Assembly (NCBI RefSeq): GCF_988242995.1
Contig: NZ_OZ547043.1
Length of the DNA stretch: 64,000 nucleotides
Strand: one strand, 5' to 3'
Below the pieces are notes generated by a model, which was given only the letters and a program-made list of their open reading frames with translations, ran no database searches and was not told the origin of the DNA. Position 1 is the first letter of the stretch, and every line of letters starts with the position of its first letter. This document shows positions 3,056 to 64,000 of the stretch, piece by piece. The position numbers and the translations under genes are program-made.

Positions 3056-3093
3056 GCGGGGAAATAAACGGCCCATTCATGAGGAATGGGCCG
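3056..3093 (-). terminator. Intrinsic terminator downstream of rnb
   Basis: Perfect stem CGGCCCATT/AATGGGCCG (3069-3077 / 3085-3093) followed on the minus strand by a U-rich run, just 3' of the rnb stop. Confidence 0.5.
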
Positions 3094-3103
3094 TGAAAGG
3101 AGA

Positions 3104-7165: not shown

Positions 7166-7599
7166 AGCTTTAATCCTTATTGTTGATGCTTGTTGTGCCT
7201 GAAAATCAGGCGATTCGTCGTTTTAGTAAACAGTACGAACAGATAAACGGTTATTATAATCAACCTGGCTGTGGGTGGCTATAGTTGCGCTTTCTGTAGC
7301 GGAGAGAAGCTGCGGTACAGAGCATTTTGCGTTATCTACTCTTGACGCCTGCAAGGGGTAGGTTGGGGAAATATCTTATAGAATCTGACTCTGAAACTAT
7401 TCGTATTAGCTCCGATAAGTTTGATGATGAAAACAGAACTGGTGACAACAAGTAGCAGCCTTTCTGATGAATTGACCCCAACTTAATATTGTCAACTATC
7501 TTCACAGAATCTCCACAATCTCTTCATTATCAGAATATGCACCATGAATAAGATAAAAATACTTTCCATTACTTTGGAGAAACGTATAATCAGCAAAAA

Positions 7600-7617
7600 T
7601 GAGAACGATCATTCTCA
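7600..7617 (+). promoter_or_regulatory. Candidate promoter/operator of the TetR gene (TATAAT at 7585-7590, then imperfect palindrome TGAGAA-cgatca-TTCTCA)
   Basis: Seen in sequence: consensus -10 hexamer followed by an 18-bp imperfect inverted repeat 26 bp upstream of the ATG at 7643. Confidence 0.35.
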
Positions 7618-7642
7618 CCAAGTGATAGGCCAGGAGACAGAA

Positions 7643-8209
7643 ATGACCAGCAAACTGGAGATACGCCACAAACAGCGTCAGGATGAAATCATTAACGCCG
7701 CCCGTCGGTGTTTTCGTCGCTGCGGGTTTCATGCCGCCAGTATGTCGCAAATTGCCAGCGAAGCTCAGCTTAGCGTGGGTCAGATATATCGTTACTTCGC
7801 CAACAAAGACGCCATTATTGAAGAGATGGTTCGCCGTATCATCGACTTTCGTATTGCCCAAATGGACATTGACGCGCGTACCGATCACTTCCCGGAAGTC
7901 CTTGCCTTGCGTAAATCCTTAAATGAGGACGACGACGCGCTGATGCTGGAAGTGGCTGCAGAAGCCACACGCAATCCGCGGGTTATGGCAATGCTTGAAG
8001 AAGCTGACGCCAGAATGTTCGCTAACGGTTGTGCACATATGAAAAGAATGCATCCCCATCTTAGCGACGAGCACATTCGTTGCTGCGTTGAAGTGTTTGC
8101 TACCATGATGGAAGGTACGGTTTATCGTCGTTTAACACCGCAAAAAAGCGATCCACAACATCTGCAGGAAATATATCAGGATATTGTTAGTATGTTGATA
8201 AATAAATAA
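7643..8209 (+). CDS. TetR/AcrR-family transcriptional regulator (~188 aa)
   Basis: N-terminal TetR HTH (EIINAARRCFRRCGFHAASMSQIASEAQLSVGQIYRYFANKDAI); start chosen at ATG 7643 with GGAG Shine-Dalgarno 6 nt upstream rather than the unsupported ATG at 7544. Confidence 0.8.
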   Translation: MTSKLEIRHKQRQDEIINAARRCFRRCGFHAASMSQIASEAQLSVGQIYRYFANKDAIIEEMVRRIIDFRIAQMDIDARTDHFPEVLALRKSLNEDDDALMLEVAAEATRNPRVMAMLEEADARMFANGCAHMKRMHPHLSDEHIRCCVEVFATMMEGTVYRRLTPQKSDPQHLQEIYQDIVSMLINK

Positions 8210-8229
8210 GAACAGAATTAACCAATAGC

Positions 8230-8253
8230 GGGGGATATTAATCCCCCTTATTT
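8230..8253 (+). terminator. Intrinsic terminator after the TetR gene
   Basis: Stem GGGGGAT/ATCCCCC with ATTA loop followed by TTATTT. Confidence 0.6.
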
Positions 8254-8309
8254 CATTGCGAAATTCATTTCGCGATGCGGGTTCGTTATAACTGAATATC
8301 CCTGACATA

Positions 8310-8331
8310 TCCTCATTAATTTTAATGAGGA
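8310..8331 (+). promoter_or_regulatory. 22-bp perfect palindrome TCCTCATTAA-tt-TTAATGAGGA, candidate operator upstream of the efflux operon
   Basis: 10-bp perfect arms, 27 bp upstream of the MFP start codon and downstream of the TetR terminator. Confidence 0.4.
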
Positions 8332-8357
8332 GGGTATTTCTCACCCTGGAGAAAATA

Positions 8358-9479
8358 ATGAAGTATATAGCAACATCTGTAGTGGCAATGCTGCTCTTAT
8401 CTGGTTGTGATAATACGCAAAGTAACAATTCATCCCCGTCAGAAACAGAAGTCGGCGTTGTTACAGTCAAATCTCAACCGGTCTCGGTAGTCAGTGAATT
8501 AACCGGACGCACCAGTGCTGCGCTCAGTGCCGAAGTACGTCCGCAGGTTGGGGGAATTATCCAGAAACGCTTATTTAAGGAAGGTGATCTGGTCAAGGCT
8601 GGACAGCCGCTCTACCAGATTGATGCGGCCAGTTATCAGGCTGCATGGAATGAAGCTCGGGCAGCATTACAACAAGCACAGGCACTGGTAAAAGCCGATT
8701 GCCAGAAAGCGCAGCGTTATGCCCGACTGGTGAAAGAGAACGGTGTTTCACAACAGGATGCTGATGATGCTCAGTCTACCTGTGCACAAGATAAAGCCAG
8801 TGTAGAGGCGAAAAAAGCCGCACTGGAAACTGCGCGCATTAATCTTGACTGGACCACGGTAACCGCACCGATTTCAGGGCGCATTGGCATTTCGTCGGTA
8901 ACCCCTGGCGCACTGGTGACCGCGTCGCAAGATACAGCGTTAACGACTATTCGTGGTCTGGATACAATGTATGTCGACCTCACTCGCTCCAGTGTCGATT
9001 TATTACGTCTGCGTAAACAGTCACTGGCGACCAACAGTGACACCATGAGCGTCTCACTTATTCTGGAAGATGGCACAACCTACAGCGAAAAAGGGCGTCT
9101 GGAACTCACCGAAGTCGCTGTAGATGAGTCTACCGGTTCGGTGACATTACGGGCGATTTTCCCCAATCCACAACAGCAGTTATTACCGGGAATGTTTGTT
9201 CGCGCTCGTGTCGATGAAGGCGTGATGGAAGACGCTATTCTCGCGCCGCAACAGGGCGTCACGCGCGATGCTAAAGGCAATGCAACTGCGCTGGTGGTCA
9301 ATAAAGACAATAAAGTAGAGCAGCGAACGCTCGAAACGGGAGAAACGTATGGTGATAAATGGCTGGTGCTGAACGGCCTGCACAACGGCGACCGACTGAT
9401 TGTTGAAGGTTCTGCCAAAGTCACTTCAGGGCAGACCGTCAAGGCTGTTGAAGTTCAGGCTAATGGAGGCAACGCCTGA
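8358..9479 (+). CDS. RND efflux periplasmic adaptor (membrane fusion lipoprotein), ~373 aa
   Basis: Start ATG 8358 with GGAG Shine-Dalgarno; lipoprotein signal MKYIATSVVAMLLLSGC; HlyD/AcrA-like sequence; stop overlaps next start (TGATG). Confidence 0.8.
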   Translation: MKYIATSVVAMLLLSGCDNTQSNNSSPSETEVGVVTVKSQPVSVVSELTGRTSAALSAEVRPQVGGIIQKRLFKEGDLVKAGQPLYQIDAASYQAAWNEARAALQQAQALVKADCQKAQRYARLVKENGVSQQDADDAQSTCAQDKASVEAKKAALETARINLDWTTVTAPISGRIGISSVTPGALVTASQDTALTTIRGLDTMYVDLTRSSVDLLRLRKQSLATNSDTMSVSLILEDGTTYSEKGRLELTEVAVDESTGSVTLRAIFPNPQQQLLPGMFVRARVDEGVMEDAILAPQQGVTRDAKGNATALVVNKDNKVEQRTLETGETYGDKWLVLNGLHNGDRLIVEGSAKVTSGQTVKAVEVQANGGNA

Positions 9480-12400
9480 TGTTTTCGCGCTTTTTTGTTC
9501 GCCGCCCGGTCTTTGCCTGGGTTATCGCCATTTTGATTATGTTGGCGGGGATTCTGGCTATTCGCACATTGCCCGTCGCGCAATATCCTGACGTTGCGCC
9601 ACCGACCATTAAAATTTCAGCCACTTATACTGGTGCTTCTGCCGAAACGCTGGAGAACAGCGTGACTCAGGTTATCGAGCAACAACTCACTGGGCTTGAT
9701 AATTTACTCTATTTCAGCTCAACCAGCAGCTCTGATGGTTCGGTCAGTATTAATGTGACCTTTGAACAAGGTACCGATCCAGATACTGCACAGGTTCAGG
9801 TGCAGAATAAAATTCAGCAGGCGGAGTCGCGCCTACCCAGCGAAGTGCAGCAAACGGGTGTTACGGTGGAGAAATCACAAAGCAACTTTTTGCTGATTGC
9901 TGCCGTGTATGACACCACTGACAAAGCCTCCAGTTCGGATATCGCCGACTGGTTGGTTAGTAACGTTCAGGACCCACTTGCGCGTGTTGAAGGTGTGGGG
10001 AGTCTGCAAGTCTTTGGCGCGGAATACGCTATGCGCATCTGGCTTGACCCGGCCAAACTGGCGTCTTACTCGCTAATGCCTTCAGACGTGCAAAGTGCTA
10101 TTGAAGCGCAAAACGTGCAGGTTACTGCCGGGAAAATAGGGGCATTGCCTTCACCGAATACTCAGCAACTGACCGCAACGGTACGTGCGCAGTCTCGCTT
10201 GCAGACGGTGGATCAGTTCAAAAATATTATCGTGAAAAGCCAGTCAGACGGCGCAGTTGTTCGTATAAAAGATGTGGCTCGCGTTGAGATGGGCAGTGAA
10301 GATTATACCGCTATCGGCAAACTTAACGGTCACCCGTCTGCCGGGGTTGCTGTAATGCTTTCGCCCGGTGCGAATGCGCTGAATACGGCGACGCTGGTCA
10401 AGGATAAGATTGCCGAATTCCAGCGGAACATGCCGCAGGGATACGACATCGCATACCCGAAAGACAGCACTGAATTTATTAAAATCTCTGTAGAGGACGT
10501 AATTCAGACGCTGTTTGAAGCCATCGTATTGGTGGTTTGCGTGATGTATTTATTCCTGCAAAACCTGCGTGCCACACTGATTCCGGCGTTAGCTGTCCCC
10601 GTCGTTTTGCTGGGCACATTCGGCGTTCTTGCGTTGTTTGGCTATTCGATTAATACCCTGACGTTGTTTGCAATGGTGCTGGCGATCGGCTTGCTGGTGG
10701 ACGATGCCATTGTGGTGGTGGAGAACGTCGAACGCATTATGCGTGACGAAGGGTTGCCCGCGCGTGAAGCCACGGAAAAATCAATGGGCGAGATTTCTGG
10801 CGCACTGGTTGCCATTGCGCTGGTGTTGTCAGCCGTATTCCTGCCTATGGCCTTCTTTGGGGGATCTACGGGGGTAATTTATCGTCAGTTTTCGATAACC
10901 ATTATCTCCGCAATGCTGCTTTCCGTGGTAGTGGCATTGACCTTGACTCCCGCCCTGTGCGGTTCCGTCCTCCAGCATGTTCCGCCACATAAAAAAGGCT
11001 TTTTCGGCGCATTTAACCGCTTTTACCGCCGTACTGAAGATAAATATCAGCGAGGCGTAATTTATGTCCTGCGCCGTGCAGCCCGAACGATGGGGCTTTA
11101 TGTCGTGCTGGGTGGTGGAATGGCCCTGATGATGTGGAAACTGCCGGGCAGTTTCTTACCCACTGAAGACCAGGGCGAAATCATGGTGCAGTACACGCTG
11201 CCGGCTGGGGCGACCGCTGCCCGTACAGCAGAAGTGAATCGCCAGATTGTTGACTGGTTCCTGATTAACGAGAAAGCAAATACCGATGTCATCTTTACCG
11301 TTGATGGTTTCAGTTTTAGCGGTAGCGGACAGAACACCGGGATGGCGTTTGTTTCGTTGAAAAACTGGTCTCAACGTAAAGGGGCAGAAAACACCGCCCA
11401 GGCTATCGCCCTACGGGCAACCAAAGAGCTGGGCACAATTCGTGATGCCACGGTATTTGCGATGACGCCGCCAGCCGTTGATGGGCTGGGGCAAAGCAAT
11501 GGTTTTACGTTTGAATTGTTAGCTAACGGTGGAACCGATCGCGAAACACTACTGCAAATGCGTAATCAGTTGATAGAAAAAGCGAATCAAAGTCCGGAGT
11601 TACATTCTGTGCGTGCCAATGATTTGCCACAAATGCCGCAATTGCAGGTAGATATTGATAGTAATAAAGCGGTGTCATTAGGGTTGAGTTTGAATGATGT
11701 CACCGACACCCTGTCCAGTGCGTGGGGCGGTACTTATGTGAATGACTTTATTGACCGTGGTCGTGTGAAAAAAGTCTACATTCAGGGCGACAGTGAATTT
11801 CGTTCCGCGCCGTCAGACTTAGGTAAATGGTTTGTGCGCGGTAGCGATAACGCCATGACACCATTCTCTGCTTTTGCGACCACCCGCTGGCTGTATGGAC
11901 CGGAAAGACTGGTGCGCTACAACGGCTCGGCAGCCTATGAAATTCAGGGCGAAAACGCGACTGGCTTTAGTTCCGGCGATGCAATGACAAAAATGGAGGA
12001 ACTGGCAAACAGTCTTCCTGCGGGAACAACATGGGCCTGGAGTGGTTTGTCATTGCAGGAGAAACTGGCCAGCGGTCAGGCATTAAGTCTGTATGCAGTT
12101 TCTATTTTGGTGGTTTTCCTCTGCCTTGCAGCACTGTACGAAAGCTGGTCAGTCCCGTTCTCGGTCATTCTGGTGATCCCTCTGGGGCTTCTTGGCGCGG
12201 CGCTGGCGGCCTGGATGCGTGATTTAAACAACGACGTTTACTTCCAGGTAGCGCTATTAACTACTATCGGCTTGTCGTCGAAAAACGCCATTCTGATTGT
12301 GGAATTTGCTGAAGCGGCGGTTGCAGAGGGCTATTCCTTGAGTCGTGCGGCATTACGCGCGGCGCAGACTCGTTTACGCCCAATCATCATGACCTCGCTG

Positions 12401-12586
12401 GCGTTTATTGCGGGGGTAATGCCGCTGGCGATAGCAACCGGCGCAGGGGCGAACAGCCGCATCGCCATTGGTACGGGCATTATTGGCGGCACGCTGACCG
12501 CTACATTACTGGCCATTTTCTTCGTTCCTCTGTTTTTTGTACTGGTGAAACGTTTGTTTGCCGGTAAACCGCGCCGTCAGGAGTAA
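9479..12586 (+). CDS. RND (HAE1-family, AcrB/OqxB-like) inner-membrane efflux pump, 1035 aa
   Basis: 1035-aa ORF with hallmark RND N-terminus MFSRFFVRRPVFAWVIAILIMLAGILAIRTLPVAQYPDVAPPTI and conserved VDDAIVVVENVER motif. Confidence 0.9.
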   Translation: MFSRFFVRRPVFAWVIAILIMLAGILAIRTLPVAQYPDVAPPTIKISATYTGASAETLENSVTQVIEQQLTGLDNLLYFSSTSSSDGSVSINVTFEQGTDPDTAQVQVQNKIQQAESRLPSEVQQTGVTVEKSQSNFLLIAAVYDTTDKASSSDIADWLVSNVQDPLARVEGVGSLQVFGAEYAMRIWLDPAKLASYSLMPSDVQSAIEAQNVQVTAGKIGALPSPNTQQLTATVRAQSRLQTVDQFKNIIVKSQSDGAVVRIKDVARVEMGSEDYTAIGKLNGHPSAGVAVMLSPGANALNTATLVKDKIAEFQRNMPQGYDIAYPKDSTEFIKISVEDVIQTLFEAIVLVVCVMYLFLQNLRATLIPALAVPVVLLGTFGVLALFGYSINTLTLFAMVLAIGLLVDDAIVVVENVERIMRDEGLPAREATEKSMGEISGALVAIALVLSAVFLPMAFFGGSTGVIYRQFSITIISAMLLSVVVALTLTPALCGSVLQHVPPHKKGFFGAFNRFYRRTEDKYQRGVIYVLRRAARTMGLYVVLGGGMALMMWKLPGSFLPTEDQGEIMVQYTLPAGATAARTAEVNRQIVDWFLINEKANTDVIFTVDGFSFSGSGQNTGMAFVSLKNWSQRKGAENTAQAIALRATKELGTIRDATVFAMTPPAVDGLGQSNGFTFELLANGGTDRETLLQMRNQLIEKANQSPELHSVRANDLPQMPQLQVDIDSNKAVSLGLSLNDVTDTLSSAWGGTYVNDFIDRGRVKKVYIQGDSEFRSAPSDLGKWFVRGSDNAMTPFSAFATTRWLYGPERLVRYNGSAAYEIQGENATGFSSGDAMTKMEELANSLPAGTTWAWSGLSLQEKLASGQALSLYAVSILVVFLCLAALYESWSVPFSVILVIPLGLLGAALAAWMRDLNNDVYFQVALLTTIGLSSKNAILIVEFAEAAVAEGYSLSRAALRAAQTRLRPIIMTSLAFIAGVMPLAIATGAGANSRIAIGTGIIGGTLTATLLAIFFVPLFFVLVKRLFAGKPRRQE

Positions 12587-12589
12587 GTT

Positions 12590-13963
12590 ATGTTGCGTCG
12601 TTCTCTTATTTTTCTGGTGTTGTTGAGTGCGGGATGTGTCTCGCTCGATCCTCACTACAGTACGCCTGAATCCCCAATCCCGGCGACCTTGCCGGGAGCA
12701 CAGGGCCAGGGGAAGGCAATCAGCCATGACTGGCAGCAGGTGATCCACGATCCCCGATTGCAGCAGGTAGTAACCATTGCACTGAACAGTAACCGCGATG
12801 TGCAAAAAGCGATTGCTGATATTGACTCAGCACGGGCGCTCTATGGGCAAACTAATGCGTCGTTATTTCCGACGGTGAATGCGGCCTTAAGTTCGACTCG
12901 CAGTCGTTCGCTGGCGAATGGTACGGGAACAACTGCCGAGGCTGACGGCACGGTGTCCAGTTATACGTTAGATCTGTTTGGTCGTAATCAGAGTTTATCT
13001 CGGGCGGCGCGGGAAACCTGGCTTGCCAGTGAATTTACAGCCCAGAACACTCGTTTAACGCTGATTGCTGAAATCAGCACCGCCTGGCTGACACTGGCGG
13101 CTGATAACAGCAACCTGGCCCTGGCAAAAGAAACGATGGCCAGTGCAGAAAACTCATTGAAAATTATCCAGCGCCAGCAACAGGTTGGCACGGCGGCAGC
13201 GACAGATGTCAGTGAGGCGATGAGTGTTTATCAGCAAGCGCGCGCCAGCGTTGCCAGCTATCAGACACAAGTGATGCAGGATAAAAATGCGCTGAACTTA
13301 CTGGCAGGTACAACGCTTGCGGAAAATCTGCTACCGGGAACACTGGAAAGCCTGCCGGAACAAATGATAAGTCTGGTTCCTGCGGGAGTATCATCTGATG
13401 TTCTGCTGCGTCGCCCGGATATCCAGGAAGCGGAACATAATTTGAAGAGCGCCAATGCAGATATTGGCGCGGCGCGGGCTAACTTTTTCCCGACGATTTC
13501 GCTGACTGCCAGTGCCGGTGTTGGCAGTGACGCATTGTCGTCGTTGTTCAGCCACGGAATGCAGATCTGGTCATTTGCGCCATCGGTCACATTACCGCTG
13601 TTCACTGGCGGAAGTAATCTGGCGCAGCTTCGTTACGCAGAAGCACAAAAGCGTGGGCTCATTGCCACCTATGAAAAAACCGTTCAGACCGCATTTAAAG
13701 ATGTCGCTAACGGACTGGCGCGGCGGACCACGCTTGAAGAGCAACTGGATGCACAACGCCAGTATGTTAAAGCTGAGCAACAAACGGTCGATGTTGGCTT
13801 GCGTCGCTATCAGGCGGGTGTTGGTGATTACCTGACCGTGTTGACGGCGCAGCGCAGCTTGTGGATCGCACAGCAGGAGCTGCTGGCACTGCAACTGACT
13901 GATTTTACAAACCGAATCACGCTCTGGCAGTCGCTGGGCGGCGGCATGTCATCACTCAAGTAA
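12590..13963 (+). CDS. Outer-membrane efflux lipoprotein (NodT/OprM family), 457 aa
   Basis: Lipobox LLSAGC in signal peptide; starts 4 nt after the RND stop; TolC/OprM-like length and repeats. Confidence 0.85.
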   Translation: MLRRSLIFLVLLSAGCVSLDPHYSTPESPIPATLPGAQGQGKAISHDWQQVIHDPRLQQVVTIALNSNRDVQKAIADIDSARALYGQTNASLFPTVNAALSSTRSRSLANGTGTTAEADGTVSSYTLDLFGRNQSLSRAARETWLASEFTAQNTRLTLIAEISTAWLTLAADNSNLALAKETMASAENSLKIIQRQQQVGTAAATDVSEAMSVYQQARASVASYQTQVMQDKNALNLLAGTTLAENLLPGTLESLPEQMISLVPAGVSSDVLLRRPDIQEAEHNLKSANADIGAARANFFPTISLTASAGVGSDALSSLFSHGMQIWSFAPSVTLPLFTGGSNLAQLRYAEAQKRGLIATYEKTVQTAFKDVANGLARRTTLEEQLDAQRQYVKAEQQTVDVGLRRYQAGVGDYLTVLTAQRSLWIAQQELLALQLTDFTNRITLWQSLGGGMSSLK

Positions 13964-13971
13964 GGAATAAT

Positions 13972-15135
13972 ATGGCTAGAGTCTCTCTTTCATGGGCATT
14001 GATTCTTGGTCTTTTAGCCGGTATAGGCCCGATGTGTACCGATCTTTATTTGCCGGCTTTGCCGGAGATGTCTGAGCAACTGGCGGCAACCACGACCATA
14101 ACGCAATTAACCCTGACCGCATCACTGATCGGTCTTGGCGTCGGACAACTGTTATTTGGCCCTCTGAGCGACAAAATAGGGCGTAAACGTCCGTTAATCT
14201 TGTCGTTGCTATTGTTTATTGTTTCTTCCATTTTGTGCGCGACAACGAACAATATTTACTGGCTGGTGGTCTGGCGTTTTATTCAAGGGATCGCGGGGGC
14301 GGGTGGTTCGGTGCTCTCTCGTTCTATTGCTCGTGACAAATATCAGGGAGTAACGTTGACCCAGTTTTTTGCGCTGTTAATGACGGTGAATGGCCTGGCA
14401 CCGGTGTTGTCGCCAGTGCTGGGCGGGTACATTGTTAGCACTTTTGACTGGCGCACTTTATTCTGGGTAATGGCTGAAATTAGCACCGTATTGTTGCTGG
14501 GCTGCGTGTTATTTATTAATGAGACCTTGCCAGAAAATAAAAGGGGCTCATCATTGCTATTAACCGGACGAAGCGTGGTGCAGAACCGCCGTTTTATGCG
14601 CTTTTGCCTGATTCAAAGTTTTATGCTGGCAGGCTTGTTTGCATATATCGGCTCTTCGTCGTTCGTGTTGCAGAAGGAATTTGGCTTTAGTCCAATGCAA
14701 TTTAGCCTGGTGTTTGGCCTTAACGGCATCGGACTTATCATTGCTTCATGGATCTTTTCGCGCCTGGCTCGACGGATTAACGCGATGACATTGTTGCGAG
14801 GTGGCCTGATAGCGGCAATTTTGTGTGCATTGCTCACGGTCTTATGCGCATGGATACAATTGCCCATTCCGGCACTGGTGGCATTATTTTTCACCATCGC
14901 ATTTTGTAGCGGCATCGGCACTGTTGGCGGGGCAGAGGCTATGAGTGCAGTAGGGACGCAGGAATCTGGAACGGCGTCTGCGTTGATGGGGATGAGCATG
15001 TTTGTCTTCGGCGGTATAGCCGCGCCATTGTCGGGAATTGGCGGAGAAACACTGTTAAAAATGAGTCTGGCAATTACGGTGTGTTATACGCTGGCATTGC
15101 TGGTTGCTCTCACCAGAATCGACAATCAAAAGTAA
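13972..15135 (+). CDS. MFS (DHA1, Bcr/CflA-like) transporter, 387 aa
   Basis: 387-aa hydrophobic ORF with MFS motif GPLSDKIGRKRP; tightly coupled to the upstream OMP gene. Confidence 0.8.
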   Translation: MARVSLSWALILGLLAGIGPMCTDLYLPALPEMSEQLAATTTITQLTLTASLIGLGVGQLLFGPLSDKIGRKRPLILSLLLFIVSSILCATTNNIYWLVVWRFIQGIAGAGGSVLSRSIARDKYQGVTLTQFFALLMTVNGLAPVLSPVLGGYIVSTFDWRTLFWVMAEISTVLLLGCVLFINETLPENKRGSSLLLTGRSVVQNRRFMRFCLIQSFMLAGLFAYIGSSSFVLQKEFGFSPMQFSLVFGLNGIGLIIASWIFSRLARRINAMTLLRGGLIAAILCALLTVLCAWIQLPIPALVALFFTIAFCSGIGTVGGAEAMSAVGTQESGTASALMGMSMFVFGGIAAPLSGIGGETLLKMSLAITVCYTLALLVALTRIDNQK

Positions 15136-15139
15136 TGAA

Positions 15140-15177
15140 CACCTCATCCTGAGGGGGGCCCCTGTCAGGATGAGGTG
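15140..15177. terminator. Long perfect hairpin between the convergent MFS gene and sapF (probable bidirectional terminator)
   Basis: CACCTCATCCTGA...TCAGGATGAGGTG 13-bp perfect arms around a GC-rich centre; lies in the 49-bp gap between convergent stops. Confidence 0.5.
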
Positions 15178-15184
15178 CAAAGCA

Positions 15185-15991
15185 CTAACGGTCCTTACGC
15201 CACGCATCCGCCGTCAATGCCTCGCCAAAATGACCGGCGATCAGCCGTTTGGTGAGTTCATGCAGCGGCGATGCCAGCACATCGGCGGTGCTGCCTCGCT
15301 CGACAACCTCGCCCTGATGCATCACCAGCACCTGGTCGCTAATGTGCTTCATCATTCCGATATGCTGGGTAACATAAATATACGAAATGCCCTGTTTTTC
15401 CTGTAACTCAAGCATCAGATTAATCAACTGCGAACGCATCGACATATCCAGTGAGGCGAGGGCTTCATCGGCAATAATGACTTTTGGGCGCAATATCAGC
15501 GCGCGCGCCAGCCCCAGACGCTGTTTTTGCCCGGGTGCCAACATATGCGGATAGTAACTGACGTGATCCGGTAGCAGCCCAACCATACGCATCGTTTCAA
15601 TAATCTGTTTGCGACGCTGTTCCGGTTCCAGGTCGGTGTTCAGACGCAGTGGAAAATCCAGGATTTGCGAGATACGTTGACGGGGATTCAACGATGTCGA
15701 AGGATCCTGAAAAATCATGCGAATACGCTGACTACGGAAGGAATAATCGCCAAAATGCAGCGGATGATCGTCAATTAATAACTCGCCGCTGGTAGGTTCT
15801 ATCATTCCCGCCAGCATTTTTGCCAGCGTGGATTTACCCGAACCATTCTCGCCAATAATCGCCAGTGTCTGGCCTTCACGTAGCGTAAAGCTCAAGGGTT
15901 TTACCGCTTCTACGGTCTGACGACGAAACCAACCGGTCCGGTAGCGGAACGTTTTACTTAAATTACGCACTTCAAGCAGCGTTTCGATCAT
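15185..15991 (-). CDS. sapF: Peptide ABC transporter ATP-binding protein SapF, 268 aa
   Basis: Walker A GENGSGKST, ABC signature; fifth gene of the sapABCDF operon. Confidence 0.9.
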   Translation of the reverse strand: MIETLLEVRNLSKTFRYRTGWFRRQTVEAVKPLSFTLREGQTLAIIGENGSGKSTLAKMLAGMIEPTSGELLIDDHPLHFGDYSFRSQRIRMIFQDPSTSLNPRQRISQILDFPLRLNTDLEPEQRRKQIIETMRMVGLLPDHVSYYPHMLAPGQKQRLGLARALILRPKVIIADEALASLDMSMRSQLINLMLELQEKQGISYIYVTQHIGMMKHISDQVLVMHQGEVVERGSTADVLASPLHELTKRLIAGHFGEALTADAWRKDR

Positions 15992-30047: not shown

Positions 30048-30655
30048 TAGCCCAACGCAATAATGTCTGATGCGCTGCGCTTATCAGGCCTGCAAACGAC
30101 GTATTGATTATGTATGCCGGACAAAGCATTCTGAACTGCACCCCAAATGTTGGACATAATCTGACATCTGAAGGTGCAGTTTATGAAACATTCATTTGAA
30201 GTAAAACTTGCCGCTGTAAATCATTACCTGGCTGGTCATGCAGGCATCATTTCTACGGCAAAACTCTTTCAACTTTCTCACACCAGCCTCTCACACTGGA
30301 TTAATCTTTTTCTTCTTCACGGTCCTCGGGCACTGGATTGCAGACACAAGCGTAGCTATTCTCCTGAAGATAAACTTTGCGTGGTTCTTTATGCTCTCGG
30401 GCATTCTGAGTCTCTACCCCGGGTAGCTGCCCGGTTTAACATTCCCAGCCACAACACGGTTAAAAACTGGATAAAAGGCTACCGCAAATCTGGTAATGAG
30501 GCCTTTATCAGGCGCAGGAAGGAGAAAAGCATGACCCGTTCTGATGATACCCATGAAAACGAGGCAAACATGACGCCGGAAGAGATGAAGAATGAGCTGC
30601 GTTATCTTCGCGCAGAAAATGCATATCTGAAAGCCATGCAGGAGCATCTCCTGGA

Positions 30656-31563
<908 letters not shown>

Positions 31564-34671: not shown

Positions 34672-34713
34672 CAAATTACTTATTGAGCGGTGTAAACAAC
34701 GCCGCTTATTCAT

Positions 34714-34739
34714 TTGATAAATCAAAATTAACCCACATT
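34714..34739 (+). promoter_or_regulatory. Candidate sigma-32 (heat-shock) promoter of ycjX
   Basis: TTGATAA ... CCCACATT resembles the sigma-32 consensus (TTGAAA / CCCCATnT) ~50 bp upstream of ycjX; spacing approximate. Confidence 0.35.
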
Positions 34740-34789
34740 ATTATCTCCAGTATCTAATCCTTTCTACAGCTTTCTGGCACAGGACAGCA

Positions 34790-41271: not shown

Positions 41272-41516
41272 GATCGTCTCTGGTTCAGGAAGTATTACAG
41301 GCAGTGTTGTGCAAATTTTGCGGATTATCAAATCCTTTTCTTCAACGCTATGTCATCGATCTTGTATCACCTTTTTGCCGGAAGTTGTTTGCATTTTCAT
41401 TGATGGTCAGATATTAGAATTGTCGTAATGTTATATACATGGCGTATTTTATTCTTACTGGTTCTACACATGTTAATCGCATCTGATTGATCAGTTCACC
41501 TTAATAAGTTTAATAA

Positions 41517-41543
41517 ATCGTACTGCACATAGTACAGTACGAT
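41517..41543 (-). terminator. Candidate terminator of the ymjC-like gene
   Basis: 9-bp perfect stem ATCGTACTG/CAGTACGAT with 9-nt loop, followed on the minus strand by UUAUUAAAC. Confidence 0.4.
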
Positions 41544-41561
41544 GGTAGCTATATAATTGAT

Positions 41562-42200
41562 TTACATGAAGAATGGCTTGTCGCCATCAGTCCCGGGTTG
41601 ATTGATTCCTATATTCTCACCAATGTGTTTCTCAGGTTTATCGATGATATCTGTAATTAATGCTGCGACACTCTTACGTGATACGATCGTACCTTTGAAT
41701 GGTTCATTGCGTGAGGTAAGCTCATAATCAATAATATCTTCATCGGTCAGCCAGGCAGGGCGAAGAATTGTATATTCCAGTCCAGAAGCCTCAATTGCAT
41801 CCGCAGCCCTGCGGAATGGTTTTAGGGGTTCACCAATAACTGCATTATTCCATTCGCCAAATTTTCCTGGAACTTCATCATAAATACCGAGGGAAAGAAC
41901 AAAGATCAGACGTTTAACATCACAGGCTTTCATCGCAGCGATCACTGAATTTGCCTGAATATCTAAATCTTCCCCCGTAAGGTTGGCATACACAACATCC
42001 TGTCCCTGCATGGCCTGCTTCAGTGCTGCATGATTCAGTACATCCCCCATAATAATCTTGCTATTAGTGGGATAGGGTTTGTGGATTTTTGCTGGCTGAC
42101 GGGCAAATAAAGTTTGTTTAATGGTTTGTTTATCTGCCAGTTGATTAATCACATGGCGGGCTATCTGACCGCCAGCACCAAGAATCAGTACATTTTTCAT
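41562..42200 (-). CDS. ymjC: NAD(P)-binding (NmrA/atypical SDR-like) oxidoreductase, 212 aa; intact counterpart of K-12 ymjC
   Basis: Rossmann motif LILGAGGQIA near the N-terminus; full-length ORF between mpaA and ycjY. Confidence 0.65.
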   Translation of the reverse strand: MKNVLILGAGGQIARHVINQLADKQTIKQTLFARQPAKIHKPYPTNSKIIMGDVLNHAALKQAMQGQDVVYANLTGEDLDIQANSVIAAMKACDVKRLIFVLSLGIYDEVPGKFGEWNNAVIGEPLKPFRRAADAIEASGLEYTILRPAWLTDEDIIDYELTSRNEPFKGTIVSRKSVAALITDIIDKPEKHIGENIGINQPGTDGDKPFFM

Positions 42201-44228: not shown

Positions 44229-44564
44229 CACTACTTGCTGATACATTAATTTAATTCTTCTCTTAACGTATTCTCAGTTCCTTTCAACGTTTTGGTCATT
44301 TTTTATTCTTCGTACAATGGCGACAGATGCTGATTATGATACCGAAAACGGGTTTGAACGTGCGAAGCCCGAACGTAGTGTTCGGAGTTCTATGTGCTTT
44401 ACCGCATTTTGGAGACTATTATTTACACTAAATCTGATTTGATATATTGATACTTAAAACATTTGATGCTTCCTTTGTCACTTTTTTGATGGAAGTTGTT
44501 TGCATTTCTTTAAGGCGAAACAAATAATTACGCATCAATTTTAATGTCGGTTAGAGGGAAACTT

Positions 44565-46178
44565 ATGAAGCACTCTGTTTCAGTCACGTGTTGTGCGCTG
44601 TTGGTCAGCAGCATTTCTCTTTCGTATGCTGCTGAAGTTCCGAGCGGCACAGTACTGGCAGAGAAGCAGGAGCTGGTGCGCCACATTAAAGATGAGCCAG
44701 CGTCGCTGGATCCCGCTAAAGCCGTGGGCCTGCCGGAGATTCAGGTCATTCGCGATCTGTTTGAAGGACTGGTGAATCAGAACGAGAAAGGGGAGATTGT
44801 CCCCGGCGTTGCGACTCAGTGGAAAAGTAATGACAACCGTATCTGGACTTTTACCCTGCGCGATAACGCAAAATGGGCGGATGGCACACCGGTAACGACG
44901 CAAGATTTTGTCTACAGCTGGCAACGTCTGGTGGACCCAAAAACATTGTCGCCATTTGCATGGTTTGCCGCGCTGGCGGGAATCAACAACGCACAGGCGA
45001 TTATTGATGGTAAAGCCACGCCTGACCAGCTTGGCGTCACCGCAGTTGATGCCCATACTTTGAAAATCCAGCTTGATAAACCGTTGCCGTGGTTTGTGAA
45101 TTTAACCGCTAACTTTGCCTTCTTCCCGGTGCAAAAAGCCAACGTAGAAAGCAGTAAAGAGTGGACGAAACCCGGAAATCTGATCGGCAATGGCGCTTAT
45201 GTTCTTAAAGAGCGCGTAGTCAATGAAAAACTGGTCGTGGTACCGAATACCCATTATTGGGATAACGCCAAAACGGTGCTGCAAAAAGTGACCTTCCTGC
45301 CAATTAATCAGGAATCCGCAGCCACTAAGCGTTACCTCGCGGGGGATATTGATATCACCGAATCCTTCCCGAAAAATATGTATCAGAAGCTGTTGAAGGA
45401 TATTCCGGGGCAGGTTTATACGCCGCCGCAGCTCGGGACCTATTATTATGCGTTTAACACGCAAAAAGGGCCGACGGCCGATCAGCGTGTTCGCCTGGCA
45501 TTAAGTATGACGATAGATCGCCGCCTGATGACCGAAAAAGTGTTGGGGACGGGGGAAAAGCCAGCGTGGCATTTTACACCAGATGTTACTGCCGGTTTTA
45601 CGCCGGAGCCTTCGCCGTTTGAACAAATGAGTCAGGAAGAACTGAATGCGCAGGCAAAAACTTTGTTGAGCGCAGCTGGTTATGGTCCGCAAAAACCGCT
45701 GAAGCTGACGCTTTTGTATAACACTTCAGAAAACCATCAAAAAATTGCGATTGCTGTAGCATCGATGTGGAAAAAGAACCTTGGCGTAGATGTTAAATTG
45801 CAGAATCAGGAATGGAAAACCTATATCGATAGCCGTAACACCGGCAATTTTGATGTTATCCGCGCCTCATGGGTAGGGGATTATAATGAACCCTCCACTT
45901 TCCTTACGTTGTTAACGTCAACGCATTCAGGGAATATTTCACGCTTTAACAATCCGGCATACGACAAAGTACTGGCCCAGGCATCAACGGAAAATACCGT
46001 TAAAGCGCGTAATGCCGATTACAATGCGGCAGAAAAAATCCTCATGGAGCAAGCACCGATTGCACCAATTTATCAATATACCAATGGACGATTAATCAAG
46101 CCGTGGCTGAAAGGTTATCCCATTAATAACCCGGAAGATGTGGCGTACAGTCGGACTATGTATATTGTGAAGCATTGA
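44565..46178 (+). CDS. mppA: Periplasmic murein tripeptide-binding protein MppA, 537 aa
   Basis: OppA-like solute-binding protein with signal peptide; start MKHSVSVTCCALLVSSISLSYA. Confidence 0.9.
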   Translation: MKHSVSVTCCALLVSSISLSYAAEVPSGTVLAEKQELVRHIKDEPASLDPAKAVGLPEIQVIRDLFEGLVNQNEKGEIVPGVATQWKSNDNRIWTFTLRDNAKWADGTPVTTQDFVYSWQRLVDPKTLSPFAWFAALAGINNAQAIIDGKATPDQLGVTAVDAHTLKIQLDKPLPWFVNLTANFAFFPVQKANVESSKEWTKPGNLIGNGAYVLKERVVNEKLVVVPNTHYWDNAKTVLQKVTFLPINQESAATKRYLAGDIDITESFPKNMYQKLLKDIPGQVYTPPQLGTYYYAFNTQKGPTADQRVRLALSMTIDRRLMTEKVLGTGEKPAWHFTPDVTAGFTPEPSPFEQMSQEELNAQAKTLLSAAGYGPQKPLKLTLLYNTSENHQKIAIAVASMWKKNLGVDVKLQNQEWKTYIDSRNTGNFDVIRASWVGDYNEPSTFLTLLTSTHSGNISRFNNPAYDKVLAQASTENTVKARNADYNAAEKILMEQAPIAPIYQYTNGRLIKPWLKGYPINNPEDVAYSRTMYIVKH

Positions 46179-46228: not shown

Positions 46229-47260
46229 TTAGCGACCCTGGTCCGGCGGTGTAATGTTATCCATATACAGCGTCTGGCTGGGGAAGGCAAAGTCCGCGCC
46301 GTGTGACTGTACAATATCGATAATCTTCAAATAAACGTCTTGCTGTGCAGCAAGCCATTCAGCCCATACCGTGGTTTTGGTAAAGCAATAAACCATAATA
46401 TTTAATGACGAATCGGCAAACTGGTTGAAATAAACCAGTAAGGTTTGTCGCTGGTCGATGGCCGGGTGATTTTTCAGCATCTCACGTACGGCTTCGACAA
46501 TAACGCCCACTTTTGCCGCATCCTCATAACGTAAACCAATGGTCGTGGTAATGCGCCGGTTGGTCATTCGTCCAGGATTTTCTACGCTGATCGACGAAAA
46601 CAGCGAGTTCGGTACGTACAATGGACGATTATCAAAGGTCGTAATTTTGGTAATTCGCCAGCCAATTTCCGCTACTGTACCTTCGATATTTCTGTCCGGT
46701 GAACGGATCCAGTCGCCAATACTAAAAGGACGGTCGAAATAGAGCATAATCCCGGAAAAGAAGTTACTCAGAATATCTTTACCGGCCATACCGACAGCCA
46801 GACCACCAATACCACCAAAGGTCAACAAGCCAGAAAGGCTCATGCCGAAATGTTCGCCATAAAGCAGAACAAGCACCACAATAATGGTGATTTTGATGAT
46901 ACGCGACATAATCCGCGCACTGGTGATATCGCGACCTTTTTTAATCTGCTGTTTTTCAAACTGATTAATCAGCAGAAATAGCTTAATCGTCAGAATAACC
47001 GCAATCAGGGACGTACAGATAAAATCGATAACGCCTGGGGTGATAAATTTGAGTTTATAGTTTTCTATAACATAATTAATGATGCTACCAACAGCACTGA
47101 TAATTATGGTGTAGATTAAAAATTGCACCGCATGGAATAAAAAACCTTTTCTTTTACGATTTCCGCGGCGAAACCAAAAGCTCATCAGAATCAATGCTGC
47201 GCAGCTACCGAAAATAATGACCAGATTAAGCGCATTATTTGTAAACAGTTCAGCGATCAT
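46229..47260 (-). CDS. ynaI: MscS-family mechanosensitive channel YnaI, 343 aa
   Basis: MscS-like transmembrane and beta domains; 343 aa as in E. coli YnaI. Confidence 0.88.
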
Positions 47261-47503
47261 TGTTTTATCAGGCTCCTCCAGATAATTGTCGTCATGCCGG
47301 AAACCCCTGGCGGGGCTATTTTACCGCGACAATTCATTCAGATCATCAATAGTCAGGGAAGGAAGTAGCAACATTAGCTAACTAATCAATGCGTTGATTG
47401 TAAATCCAGCTAAGAGGTAAGGTTTTCAGAGCAGACAACGGTAAAATGTCATGGTATTGTTACGTTTAGGTAACAAGAAATTTGTCTGCACAAGGATTAC
47501 ATC

Positions 47504-47761
47504 ATGATTATGGCGAAACTGAAGTCAGCGAAAGGGAAGAAATTTCTCTTTGGTTTGTTGGCGGTTTTCATTATTGCGGCGTCGGTTGTGACTCGCGCGA
47601 CCATCGGCGGCGTTATAGAACAGTACAATATTCCGCTGTCTGAGTGGACGACATCAATGTATGTGATTCAGTCATCGATGATTTTTGTTTATAGCCTGGT
47701 CTTTACTGTGTTGCTGGCAATACCGTTGGGAATTTATTTTCTTGGCGGCGAAGAGCAGTAA
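47504..47761 (+). CDS. ynaJ: Small membrane protein YnaJ, 85 aa
   Basis: 85-aa two-helix ORF; divergent from ynaI; bidirectional terminator downstream (47772-47795). Confidence 0.8.
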   Translation: MIMAKLKSAKGKKFLFGLLAVFIIAASVVTRATIGGVIEQYNIPLSEWTTSMYVIQSSMIFVYSLVFTVLLAIPLGIYFLGGEEQ

Positions 47762-47810
47762 GTAAAAAATAGGCCCGATAACTCGGGCCTTGTCAGTTAT
47801 TGAAGAGTCG

Positions 47811-48761
47811 TTAATCGTCTTCTTCGTCATCCAGTTCAACGGGTGTCTGATACTGGTCAGGTTTAATGACCAGCAGGTCGCAGCGAAGATGATCAATCAC
47901 CTGTTCCGCCGTGTTGCCGAGGAATGCTGCTGAAATACCGGTGCGTCCGACCGTGCCCAGAACCACAATCCCCGCCTGTAAATGCTCCGCCAAATCAGGA
48001 ATCACCTCTTCTGGCAGACCTTTTTCTACGTGCGTCATGTTTTCATTAATGCCGAATTTCTGCCGCAGGGCTTTCATTGCCAGCAAATGTTGCCCACGAA
48101 TGGCATCGTTATAAACGCTCGGATCAAATTCCGGCAGTTCAATCGCGATATTAATTGGCGTTACCGGATAAGCGCCAACCAGATGAACTTCAGTATGGTT
48201 GACTTGTTCTGCCAGTTCGATCGTCTCTTTGACCAGTTTTTCATTGAGCGCATTATGGTACGGCTCTTCACTGGCGAGATTCACCGCCACCAGCGCCTTA
48301 CCCCCTTCCGGCCACGGCTGGTCTTTCACCATCCACACCGGGCTTGGGCATTTGCGTAACAGATGCCAGTCCGTTGGCGTAAAAATCACCGCTTCCAGAC
48401 GGTCATGTTGGTGCGCCATTTTTAGCACCAAATCGTGCCCGCCGCTGATCACTTCCTGAATGATGGCTTCGAAAGGACGGTTATGCCAGACCACTTTAAT
48501 TTCAATGGGAACGCCAGCATTGAGATAATATTTTGCCTGCTCGTGGATCCAGGCTGTACGCTGGCTGATGACGCCCTGACGCATAGCGGTACGTTCGTCC
48601 GGAGAGAGCAGGGTGGTCATTTCGTATGAGAAGTCATAGATCGGCAAAAAGGCTTTAATTTTGCCACCAATCCGTTGATGTAAATAAACAGCTCGCCGCA
48701 ATGCTGGTTGGTCGTCCTGGTTAGGATCGATAACAACGAGCATGTTCTGATACATAGCCAT
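47811..48761 (-). CDS. uspE: Universal stress protein E (tandem Usp domains), 316 aa
   Basis: Start [27 protein letters not shown]; tandem UspA domains. Confidence 0.9.
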
Positions 48762-61151: not shown

Positions 61152-62087
61152 TTATTTCACTTCAACCACATTCAGTCGTAACTCATCCAACTGATTTTCA
61201 TCTTCTTCAGGCTGCCAACCCGCCGGTTGTAGAGGGAGCTCTTCGCGATCAAACGCCAGATCACCCCCGTTAACAACTTCAGAACCGTGGGTAATGCCTT
61301 TGAAATCGAACAGGTTGGTATCGCACAGATGCGACGGCACCACATTCTGCATCGCGCTGAACATCGTCTCGATACGCCCCGGATAACGTTTATCCCAATC
61401 ACGCAACATGTCAGCAATCACCTGACGTTGCAGGTTAGGCTGTGAACCGCACAGGTTGCACGGAATAATCGGGAACGCTTTTGCATCGGCAAAGCGCTGA
61501 ATATCTTTCTCGCGGCAGTAGGCCAGCGGACGAATCACAATATGCTTGCCATCATCGCTCATCAGTTTCGGAGGCATACCTTTCATCTTGCCGCCGTAGA
61601 ACATATTTAAGAACAACGTTTGCAGGATATCGTCACGATGGTGACCCAGCGCGATCTTCGTCGCTCCCAGTTCCGTTGCGGTACGATAAAGGATACCGCG
61701 ACGAAGACGAGAACACAGTGAGCAAGTGGTTTTGCCCTCTGGAATTTTCTCTTTCACGATACCGTAAGTGTTCTCTTCCACAATCTTGTACTCAACGCCC
61801 AGCTTTTCAAGATACTCGGGCAGAACGTGTTCCGGGAAGCCCGGTTGCTTTTGATCGAGGTTAACAGCCACCAGCGAAAAATTGATTGGCGCGCTTTGCT
61901 GCAAATTGCGCAGAATCTCCAGCATGGTATAGCTGTCTTTACCCCCGGAGAGGCAAACCATGATGCGATCGCCTTCTTCAATCATATTGAAGTCAGCAAT
62001 GGCTTCGCCCACGTTACGACGCAGACGTTTTTGTAATTTGTTCAGGTTGTATTGTTCTTTCTTTGTAATTTGTTGATTTTCTTGCAT
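61152..62087 (-). CDS. ttcA: tRNA 2-thiocytidine biosynthesis protein TtcA, 311 aa
   Basis: PP-loop motif CLSGGKDS and paired CxxC motifs; start [30 protein letters not shown]. Confidence 0.92.
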
Positions 62088-62138
62088 TATTTCAGTTCTC
62101 TGGTACTAAATGGGGCAAATTGGGGGCAAACTTTGCAA

Positions 62139-63374
62139 CTACGATAACCGCGCATTCAACATGGCTATCTGTTCGTCGTTCATGTCATCAATCCACATAC
62201 CGTAAATTTCATACACCATCTGCGCAGTTTCATGCCCCATTTGGCTGGCTATAAATGCCGGGTTCGCTCCTGCCGTCAACAGCCAGCAGGCAAAAGTATG
62301 CCGCGTATGGTACGGATTACGGCGGCGAATACCAGCACGTTTTACTGCTGCATTCCACCTTGCCCCCAAACTGCTTACCGAGTAATAAGGTTTTTGTTTT
62401 CCGTTACACACCCTGGGCATGAAAACAAAATGCAGTTTTTGCTTTTCGGTTCTGCCGTACTCCCGATGATAAAAGGTGATTTCGCTTTTGCGATGATGCC
62501 CGGTCAGTTTGTATTGCTCCTTCAGTGCTTCAAGAGCAGGCTGCAGTAGTGTTACTGTTCGGATCCCGGCATTTGTTTTTGGGGGACCGAACATATCAAG
62601 TATCGTCAGGTTTCTTCTGACATTCACTATTCCCTTTTCGAGATCCACATCCTCCCACGCCAGAGCTGCCAGTTCCCCGTGACGAAGTCCTGAGTAAACG
62701 GCAAATTTCCACAAGTTCTGGCTCTGTCCTTTTTCACTTTCCATTAATGCATTGAATTCTGTTTTAGATAACGGATCAGGCTTTATTCTGTTTCGCTGTA
62801 ATTTTTTTACTCCTTCAAATGGTTTGGTTGATATAAATCCCGACTGATACGCAAAACGCAACAGCGAACAGAGCAGGGCGATATAGTTATCAACTGTGCG
62901 CACGGTTCTTCCTTTTTTGTTGGATCTTGGATTATCCAGGTAAAGCGTTTCTCCATGCAGCAGTTCATTCCGGTAGTTTAAGATATCGCTATAACGAATA
63001 TGTGATATCGGGGTACTTTCACAAATTATTATTCTGAGTGTTTTTAATTGTGATTTCGTTTTCTTCATTGTGTTTGTTGTTAACTCTGTCTCTTTAATTT
63101 TTGTCCAGATATCACAAAGCTCTCCGAACGTTTTTATGACTCTCGTTGTCACCATTTTTGCCCCAGTGCTGGACTGGGGAAAACGTCTTAAATACTCAAA
63201 TTCACCGGAGTTTATTTCATGAACTATCAGCGCTCTTAAATTTCCGGCCTTTTTAATATTACTGTTTGTAATCTCCCAGCCTTTTAATGTTTCCCGACAT
63301 CGTTTTCCTCGAAACATGAACCAGATGCGAATGTATCTACCTCTAATCTCGACACCTGTTGGTAATTTAGACAT
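62139..63374 (-). CDS. intR: Rac-like prophage integrase (tyrosine recombinase), 411 aa
   Basis: Tyrosine recombinase C-terminal region (HTRHTFACWLLTAGANPAFIASQMGHETAQMVYEIYGMW); AT-rich; immediately next to the ttcA 5' end. Confidence 0.88.
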   Translation of the reverse strand: MSKLPTGVEIRGRYIRIWFMFRGKRCRETLKGWEITNSNIKKAGNLRALIVHEINSGEFEYLRRFPQSSTGAKMVTTRVIKTFGELCDIWTKIKETELTTNTMKKTKSQLKTLRIIICESTPISHIRYSDILNYRNELLHGETLYLDNPRSNKKGRTVRTVDNYIALLCSLLRFAYQSGFISTKPFEGVKKLQRNRIKPDPLSKTEFNALMESEKGQSQNLWKFAVYSGLRHGELAALAWEDVDLEKGIVNVRRNLTILDMFGPPKTNAGIRTVTLLQPALEALKEQYKLTGHHRKSEITFYHREYGRTEKQKLHFVFMPRVCNGKQKPYYSVSSLGARWNAAVKRAGIRRRNPYHTRHTFACWLLTAGANPAFIASQMGHETAQMVYEIYGMWIDDMNDEQIAMLNARLS

Positions 63375-63375
63375 A

Positions 63376-63591
63376 TCATGAGTCTTTGATAAACTGATTT
63401 ATCTTTGGATAGTTGTACCAGATAATCCCTCGTTTGCTGTCTGGCTTACCTAAAGGAGATACTCGTTTGAAGTGGAAGCCCTCCACCCAACAGTTCTGGC
63501 GGTATGCTTCAATTTGTCTGGCCCCCAGACCAGTGCGAAGCATCAGGCCGTATTCAACCATCCACTCTTCATTAAAGATTACTTGTGCCAT
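63376..63591 (-). CDS. xisR: Prophage excisionase XisR (YdaQ), ~71 aa
   Basis: Small [38 protein letters not shown]... directly upstream of the integrase. Confidence 0.75.
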
Positions 63592-63669
63592 CGCATCACC
63601 TCTGGCAGGCGCCAATGTTAGACTGAAATTGACGCCCGATGTTGATTATTAATAATCAGCTATGAAGTT

Positions 63670-63891
63670 TTAATTTGAATACAATGCAATTCTCGAGGAC
63701 TGAAGTTTCTCGCAATTAAAATTTATCAGTTTTACTTTCTGCTCTCTGGAAACGCCTGCTTCTTTTTTACCTGAGAGCATTTTTTCGCATTCTGATTTCG
63801 TTAGTTTAGATTTTGAATATCTTGTCCAGTTAGTAGGAGTGCCACCTTCCTTTTCAATAGTGGCGGTAATTTTATACATGAACACCTCCAT
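63670..63891 (-). CDS. ydaC: Rac-like prophage small protein YdaC (DUF1187); start approximate
   Basis: MEVFMYKITATIEKEGGTPTNWTRYSKSKLTKSECEKMLSGKKEAGVSREQKVKLINFNCEKLQ...; the ORF track has an N-terminal extension. Confidence 0.65.
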   Translation of the reverse strand: MEVFMYKITATIEKEGGTPTNWTRYSKSKLTKSECEKMLSGKKEAGVSREQKVKLINFNCEKLQSSRIALYSN

Positions 63892-64000
63892 TATTATTTC
63901 CAGTGGTTCGTTTATTCCATCTTTCGAGTGCTTCTTTTTCACTTCCACCATAACCGGTTCGGGATTCGCATCCGTTACACTTCGCTCGGTAATATCCTGA

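Follow-up and report, generated by a model that had tools for sequence, protein, structure and literature searches.

An uninterrupted ynaI-ynaJ intergenic region, probably ancestral, at the site occupied by IS5F in Escherichia coli K-12

In Escherichia coli K-12 the intergenic region that separates ynaI from ynaJ is occupied by a copy of the insertion sequence IS5. The reference annotation of MG1655 (NC_000913.3) places 'insertion sequence:IS5F', with insH4 (b1331), at 1396044-1397238, between ynaI (b1330) and ynaJ (b1332), and a second K-12 record has the same arrangement of IS5 between the two genes. The element is listed as IS5 copy 4, 'ynaI/ynaJ', in BW25113 (PMC11677980) and has been described elsewhere as 'the known IS5 element b1331 to the right of ynaI' (PMC2072959); that it occupies the locus in K-12 but not elsewhere is already known, as textbook-level annotation. 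The copy is also a source of instability. Recombination between b1331 and a second IS5, situated on the left of ogt, is highly frequent in a W3110 stock and deletes ynaJ-uspE-fnr, and deletions of fnr had been noted earlier in stocks of MG1655 (PMC2072959). A derivative of BW25113 from which IS5(ynaI/ynaJ) is deleted has already been built (PMC11677980).

We report the anatomy of the corresponding region in a stretch of DNA of 64,000 nucleotides, referred to here as the window, together with the target site of the K-12 insertion, its distribution in the population and the state of the locus in outgroup lineages. The reading we favour, to which we give a probability of roughly 0.97, is that positions 47261-47503 are the divergent regulatory region shared by ynaI and ynaJ in its intact, ancestral form, and that this region never received the IS5F/insH4 (b1331) element of K-12.

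The reading frames that flank the region were named by their identity to the K-12 proteins, since NCBIfam holds no model naming YnaI or YnaJ; for the same reason, the lack of a YnaI-specific model, YnaI matches the MscS, MscK and MscM models of that collection only below their curated cut-offs. YnaI is identical to b1330 at 342 of 343 residues, the sole difference being D340E, and shares with it the neighbours mppA and ynaJ-uspE-fnr, and is thus orthologous to the characterised K-12 protein. YnaJ, identical to b1332 over all 85 residues, is likewise orthologous to K-12 YnaJ. RefSeq annotation of matching genomes names YnaI as such and calls YnaJ a DUF2534 family protein. Between the two divergent start codons lie 243 contiguous base pairs (Table 1). 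A blastn search with MG1655 IS5F as the query returned no IS5 match anywhere in the 64-kb window, and a search of 47000-47900 against Rfam at E<=1 returned no family, so the spacer contains no known sRNA or leader element.

Table 1. Features of the ynaI-ynaJ locus and other positions in the window discussed in the text
Feature	Position	Strand	Description
mppA	44544-46178		Upstream; from the list of open reading frames
ynaI	46229..47260	-	343 aa; from the list of open reading frames; low-conductance MscS-family mechanosensitive channel gene
Uninterrupted spacer between the divergent ynaI and ynaJ (empty IS5 site)	47261..47503	.	243 bp
ynaI-proximal segment	47261-47341		80% invariant; Shine-Dalgarno, short G+C-rich inverted repeat, TAAAAT hexamer
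Short G+C-rich inverted repeat, presumed ynaI 5' leader	47295..47312	.	CCCCGCCAGGGG on the ynaI strand; terminator-like on the plus strand; partly conserved in outgroups
Candidate ynaI core promoter	47318..47346	-	ATGATC-17 nt-TAAAAT; weak -35, 5/6 match at -10; relaxed hexamer scan
Alternative ynaI candidate	47371 to 47342	-	TTGCTA-18-GATGAT; relaxed scan
Conserved block 1, ynaI side of the IS5 site	47342-47378		36/37 invariant
CTAA duplicated by IS5F in K-12	47378..47381	.	First CTAA of the tandem CTAACTAA at 47378-47385
Central segment	47379-47423		18/45 invariant
Insertion point of a different, ~915-bp IS5-family element in FDAARGOS_943	47382..47384	.	CTA or TA duplication
Conserved block 2	47424-47463		37/40 invariant
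Candidate ynaJ core promoter	47432..47460	+	CAGACA-17 nt-TGgTATTGT, extended -10; inside block 2; relaxed scan
ynaJ leader	47464-47503		65% invariant
ynaJ	47504..47761	+	85 aa; from the list of open reading frames; DUF2534 small membrane protein gene
Terminator-like hairpin 3' of ynaJ, between convergent ynaJ and uspE	47771-47790	scores on -	Consensus scan
uspE	47811-48761	-	Downstream, followed by fnr; from the list of open reading frames
7.9-kb island between fabI and sapF	7289-15185		Absent from MG1655, which has ycjD there
122 bp extra in MG1655	~25873		
IS3-family element, ~1.43 kb, between puuE and pspF	30132-31563		HTH ORF and rve integrase-core ORF; absent from MG1655
Site of the 14-kb ycjM-ycjW segment of MG1655 (1370023-1384103), absent here	34690-34777		~86 bp between pspE and ycjX instead
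660 bp extra in the window	41402-42061		Completes the NAD(P)H-binding gene that is the remnant ymjC/ymjD in K-12
Intact NAD(P)H-binding (NmrA-like) gene	41562-42200	-	212 aa

A first-pass annotation of this DNA, made from its letters, had placed an IS5 copy between ynaI and ynaJ in MG1655 and had described the divergent 243-bp region of the window as intact, proposing an alignment with MG1655 as the check. That alignment bears out both statements: IS5 is present at the site in MG1655, where NC_000913.3 annotates IS5F/insH4, and the open reading frames of the window bound 47261-47503 with no insertion sequence inside. The MG1655 locus (NC_000913.3 1394891-1397622) has the same genes in the same order and orientation, and removal from it of IS5F, which is 1195 bp long, and of one CTAA leaves exactly 243 bp, which differ from the window at two positions only, 47419 and 47443, where the window has A and MG1655 has G. 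What sets the two apart is the 1195-bp element itself and a second CTAA at 47378-47381, both present in MG1655 and both missing from the window. This comparison of presence with absence is deterministic, and chance plays no part in it.

The site of insertion can be read to the base. Across it the MG1655 sequence runs ...CATTAGCTAA, then the 1195 bp of IS5F with its ends GGAAGGTGCG...CGCACCTTCC, then CTAACTAATCAATG..., whereas the window runs ...CATTAGCTAACTAATCAATG..., and no element with those ends is present in its 243-bp spacer. Immediately around the junction MG1655 has ...GCTAA, the element and CTAACTAATC, where the window has GCTAACTAATC, without the second copy of CTAA that constitutes the target-site duplication. 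As one CTAA lies to the left of the K-12 element and two lie to its right, while the empty site holds the tandem CTAACTAA, the duplicated target must be the first CTAA of the tandem, and the break points of a megablast comparison with K-12, at 682 and 679 of a query covering 46700-48000 (47381 and 47378 of the window), agree with this target. The point of insertion precedes the start codon of ynaI by 117 bp and that of ynaJ by 122 bp. The K-12 element transposed into this first CTAA and duplicated the tetranucleotide in doing so.

Conservation within the spacer, taken as the proportion of invariant columns in an alignment of four Escherichia lineages, is concentrated in two blocks, and the K-12 insertion site falls between them, at the boundary of block 1 with the least conserved, central part. 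Candidate promoters were sought by scanning 47100-47900 with a sigma-70 consensus, which at the standard threshold gave no promoter-like site, and the promoter positions in Table 1 were for this reason derived from a relaxed scan combined with conservation. The better ynaI candidate adjoins block 1, and both of the best candidates lie on their own gene's side of the IS5 insertion point. Block 1 probably holds the ynaI promoter or its upstream elements and, most likely, the two conserved blocks hold the two core promoters, as far as can be judged from hexamer matches and invariant columns. A scan for terminators over the same interval, 47100-47900, found only the hairpin between ynaJ and uspE and the plus-strand hairpin at 47295-47312, which has no plus-strand gene upstream of it to terminate. 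The spacer is, in short, probably an ordinary divergent promoter region.

We found no promoter or transcription start for ynaI in the literature. Reg-Seq scores the gene as (0,0), which stands for no regulator sites, and gives it an RNA polymerase site only (PMC7567609, PMC12314656), and genomic SELEX gives only a weak RpoS-holoenzyme peak, inside ynaI (PMC5493296).

It is against this arrangement that the effect of the insertion in K-12 has to be considered. Because IS5 sits where block 1 gives way to the variable centre, neither gene is parted from its own conserved block, and an insertion between the two blocks would leave each gene with its own promoter in K-12 and so be tolerated; in the window strain the two promoter regions would simply lie back to back. 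That the conserved blocks stay with their own genes fits a tolerated insertion without proving neutrality, and we infer that the K-12 insertion is close to neutral. The alternative is that IS5F separates or supplies upstream regulatory elements, such that the expression of ynaI, of ynaJ or of both differs between K-12 and strains with an intact spacer. IS5 is known to activate or alter neighbouring promoters, as at bglGFB, flhDC and glpFK, and the end of the K-12 element directly abuts block 1 and is 7 bp from the alternative -35-like hexamer TTGCTA (47371-47366). The same alternative could draw on the Reg-Seq result for ynaI, an RNA polymerase site unaccompanied by regulator sites (PMC7567609), and on a report that, of the mechanosensitive channel genes of E. 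coli, ynaI has the lowest expression, ~5% of that of mscS (PMC12314656). Another study in K-12 found more ynaI mRNA than mscS mRNA (PMC3508906), however, so that low expression in K-12 is not a consistent observation. Moreover, both of the best candidate core promoters are still attached to their own genes, and we found no published comparison of ynaI or ynaJ expression. We consider an altered expression in K-12 possible, although unlikely. Any such effect would be of modest interest to those who work on minor mechanosensitive channels.

The tandem CTAACTAA has been struck a second time. FDAARGOS_943 (NZ_CP065615.1), an IS-rich strain of 5.27 Mb that does not belong to K-12, has an element of ~915 bp (3086-4000 of the extracted locus) in the same spacer and the same tandem target region, 1-4 bp from the K-12 IS5 site. 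This element has terminal repeats GGCTGTGTCCCTTAAT... and is annotated 'IS5 family transposase, programmed frameshift', and by blastn it has no nucleotide similarity to IS5. A deletion of 10 bp (GATCATCAAT) further distinguishes the spacer of FDAARGOS_943; both the element and the deletion are absent from the window. The independent hits in K-12 and FDAARGOS_943 mark the tandem as a repeated target of this family of insertion sequences, and such repetition is to be expected because IS5 prefers the target YTAR. A stronger proposal, that IS5-family elements land in the tandem recurrently and also that the K-12 insertion measurably rewires the expression of ynaI and/or ynaJ, we regard as doubtful. 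Were it true, the data on YnaI abundance and regulation, all of which come from K-12, would not be representative of wild E. coli with an intact spacer.

A further insertion lies close by. In cS51a (NZ_CM176585.1), whose 1301 aligned bases match the window at 100% identity, an IS1 is present at the 5' end of ynaI (~2040-2810 of the extracted locus, corresponding to ~47237-47260 of the window), and ynaI is annotated 24 nt shorter.

The distribution of the empty site was followed through the complete genomes of E. coli, of which 5422 of 5426 match the region and 5055 (93%) match it in one uninterrupted place; queries of 1301 bp and of 303 bp, the latter with the spacer at its centre, gave the same count. 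Many hosts are represented among the carriers of the empty site, and examples of such strains are Nissle 1917, O157:H7 Xuzhou21, O103:H2 strain 129 and the B-strain derivative C41(DE3); in these natural empty sites the 243 bp are contiguous and 98-100% identical within E. coli, with 95.4% in the lowest record sampled. The left K-12 junction, joining the ynaI side to IS5, was found in 355 genomes and the right junction, joining IS5 to the ynaJ side, in 346. All 60 right-junction carriers among the matches listed and all four of the left-junction carriers sampled are K-12 laboratory derivatives; the carriers checked, with genomes of 4.17-4.79 Mb, include MG1655, C600, J53, DH5alpha, DH1, NCM3722, RR1, HST04 and ER/NEB strains, among others. 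Four interrupted records stand at the tail of the matches to the 303-bp query, three of them K-12 laboratory strains and the fourth FDAARGOS_943. The K-12 membership of the IS5 carriers thus rests on a sample of 60 + 4 + 4 records out of ~350.

For outgroups, we searched one genome per species with a degenerate YnaJ-motif pattern, which returned only six loci. Three of these, from Escherichia whittamii, Escherichia sp. E1V33 and the divergent E. coli SCPM-O-B-8794, have ynaI and ynaJ side by side in divergent orientation, separated by a spacer of 243 bp that aligns to the window with zero gaps. E. whittamii and E1V33 retain the two strongly conserved blocks, and the empty sites of the outgroups, like those of natural E. 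coli, differ from the window by point substitutions only. The CTAA target itself reads CTAG in SCPM-O-B-8794 and CGAA in both E. whittamii and E1V33. Hits in Enterobacter soli, in a Lelliottia sp. and in a MAG were dropped as outgroups for the spacer, since the flanks of their ynaJ contain no ynaI.

Two observations concern these searches rather than the site. The ynaJ homologues of the Proteobacteria MAG, Lelliottia sp. V86_10 and Enterobacter soli are 72-76% identical and tblastn found no ynaI homologue within 1.7-5 kb upstream of them, from which it follows that the pairing of ynaI with ynaJ is not universal in the Enterobacteriaceae. In SCPM-O-B-8794, though it is named E. coli, the identity of YnaI is only 92% over 221 aa and the spacer has diverged roughly as far as the spacers of the outgroup species, while UspE is 100% identical; this record may carry a recombinant or divergent ynaI-ynaJ segment.

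The presumption of the first-pass annotation that the uninterrupted arrangement is the ancestral one is upheld by these comparisons: the empty site in 5055 of 5426 genomes, junctions limited to K-12 in the sample examined, the CTAA duplication and the gapless outgroups. In K-12, where IS5 is flanked by the duplicated CTAA, there has been an insertion event. The converse history, in which this lineage once carried IS5 and lost it by a precise excision that restored a single CTAA, would leave no trace visible in one sequence, and the tandem CTAACTAA evidently attracts insertions, having received an independent IS5-family element only 1-4 bp away in FDAARGOS_943. It is nonetheless most improbable, for the same gapless 243-bp spacer is found in 93% of complete E. 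coli genomes and in outgroup Escherichia, so that parsimony needs no insertion in this lineage; furthermore, the IS5 junction occurs only in K-12 derivatives among the carriers sampled, IS5 is absent from the entire window, the sampled close relatives of the window strain (e.g. cS51a, T-HYM1 and CFSAN061763) lack IS5 at the site, and we saw no excision footprint in the window. That the element was instead lost to a collapsed repeat in the source assembly, as commonly happens to insertion sequences in short-read assemblies, is extremely unlikely, given that the window retains another complete insertion sequence (IS3 family, 30132-31563), that thousands of closed genomes have exactly the same junction sequence (100% over 303 bp in CFSAN061763 and Br_112_kylling) and that a collapse is not expected to take away exactly one copy of CTAA.

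The empty site, which is the normal condition of the wild type, serves as a strain marker and shows that the window does not come from a K-12 derivative. The window strain is also without the IS5 copy that is involved in the spontaneous deletions of the fnr region in K-12 stocks, and its locus lacks the IS5 homology that drives the loss of neighbouring genes, ynaJ-uspE-fnr among them, there. Two further K-12 records have segments missing on one side or the other of the element. In MG1655-pvir (NZ_CP169294.1) IS5F is joined directly to ompN, and everything from ynaJ through the Rac prophage is missing. The next IS5 copy, in lomR, is ~30 kb from the ynaI/ynaJ copy (PMC11677980), and we infer that the MG1655-pvir deletion, which fits such an event, arose by recombination between these two copies. 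In one C600 record (NZ_CM181231.1) a truncated ycjV abuts IS5-ynaJ, and ompG through ynaI are missing.

The empty site does not stand alone. Seven collinear blocks, 96.0-98.6% identical, relate the window to MG1655 1343873-1413861, and the first-pass annotation's mention of other non-K-12 features is substantiated by five further structural differences from MG1655 (Table 1). Encoded on the fabI-sapF island are a TetR-family regulator, the membrane-fusion protein, AcrB-type pump and outer-membrane factor of an RND efflux system, and an MFS transporter. The MG1655 blocks that flank the IS3-family element have 4 bp in common (MG1655 1366896-1366899), which agrees with a short duplication of the target. 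The ycjM-ycjW segment present in MG1655 comprises a sugar ABC transporter, kojibiose phosphorylase, ompG and ycjW. To judge from the intact NmrA-like gene of the window, K-12 appears to carry a 660-bp deletion at ymjC/ymjD. At its far end (~62040-64000) the window remains collinear with MG1655 (98.6%) as far as 1413861, a point ~2 kb inside the cryptic prophage Rac (intR, xisR), and the window strain therefore also has a Rac-like element integrated next to ttcA.
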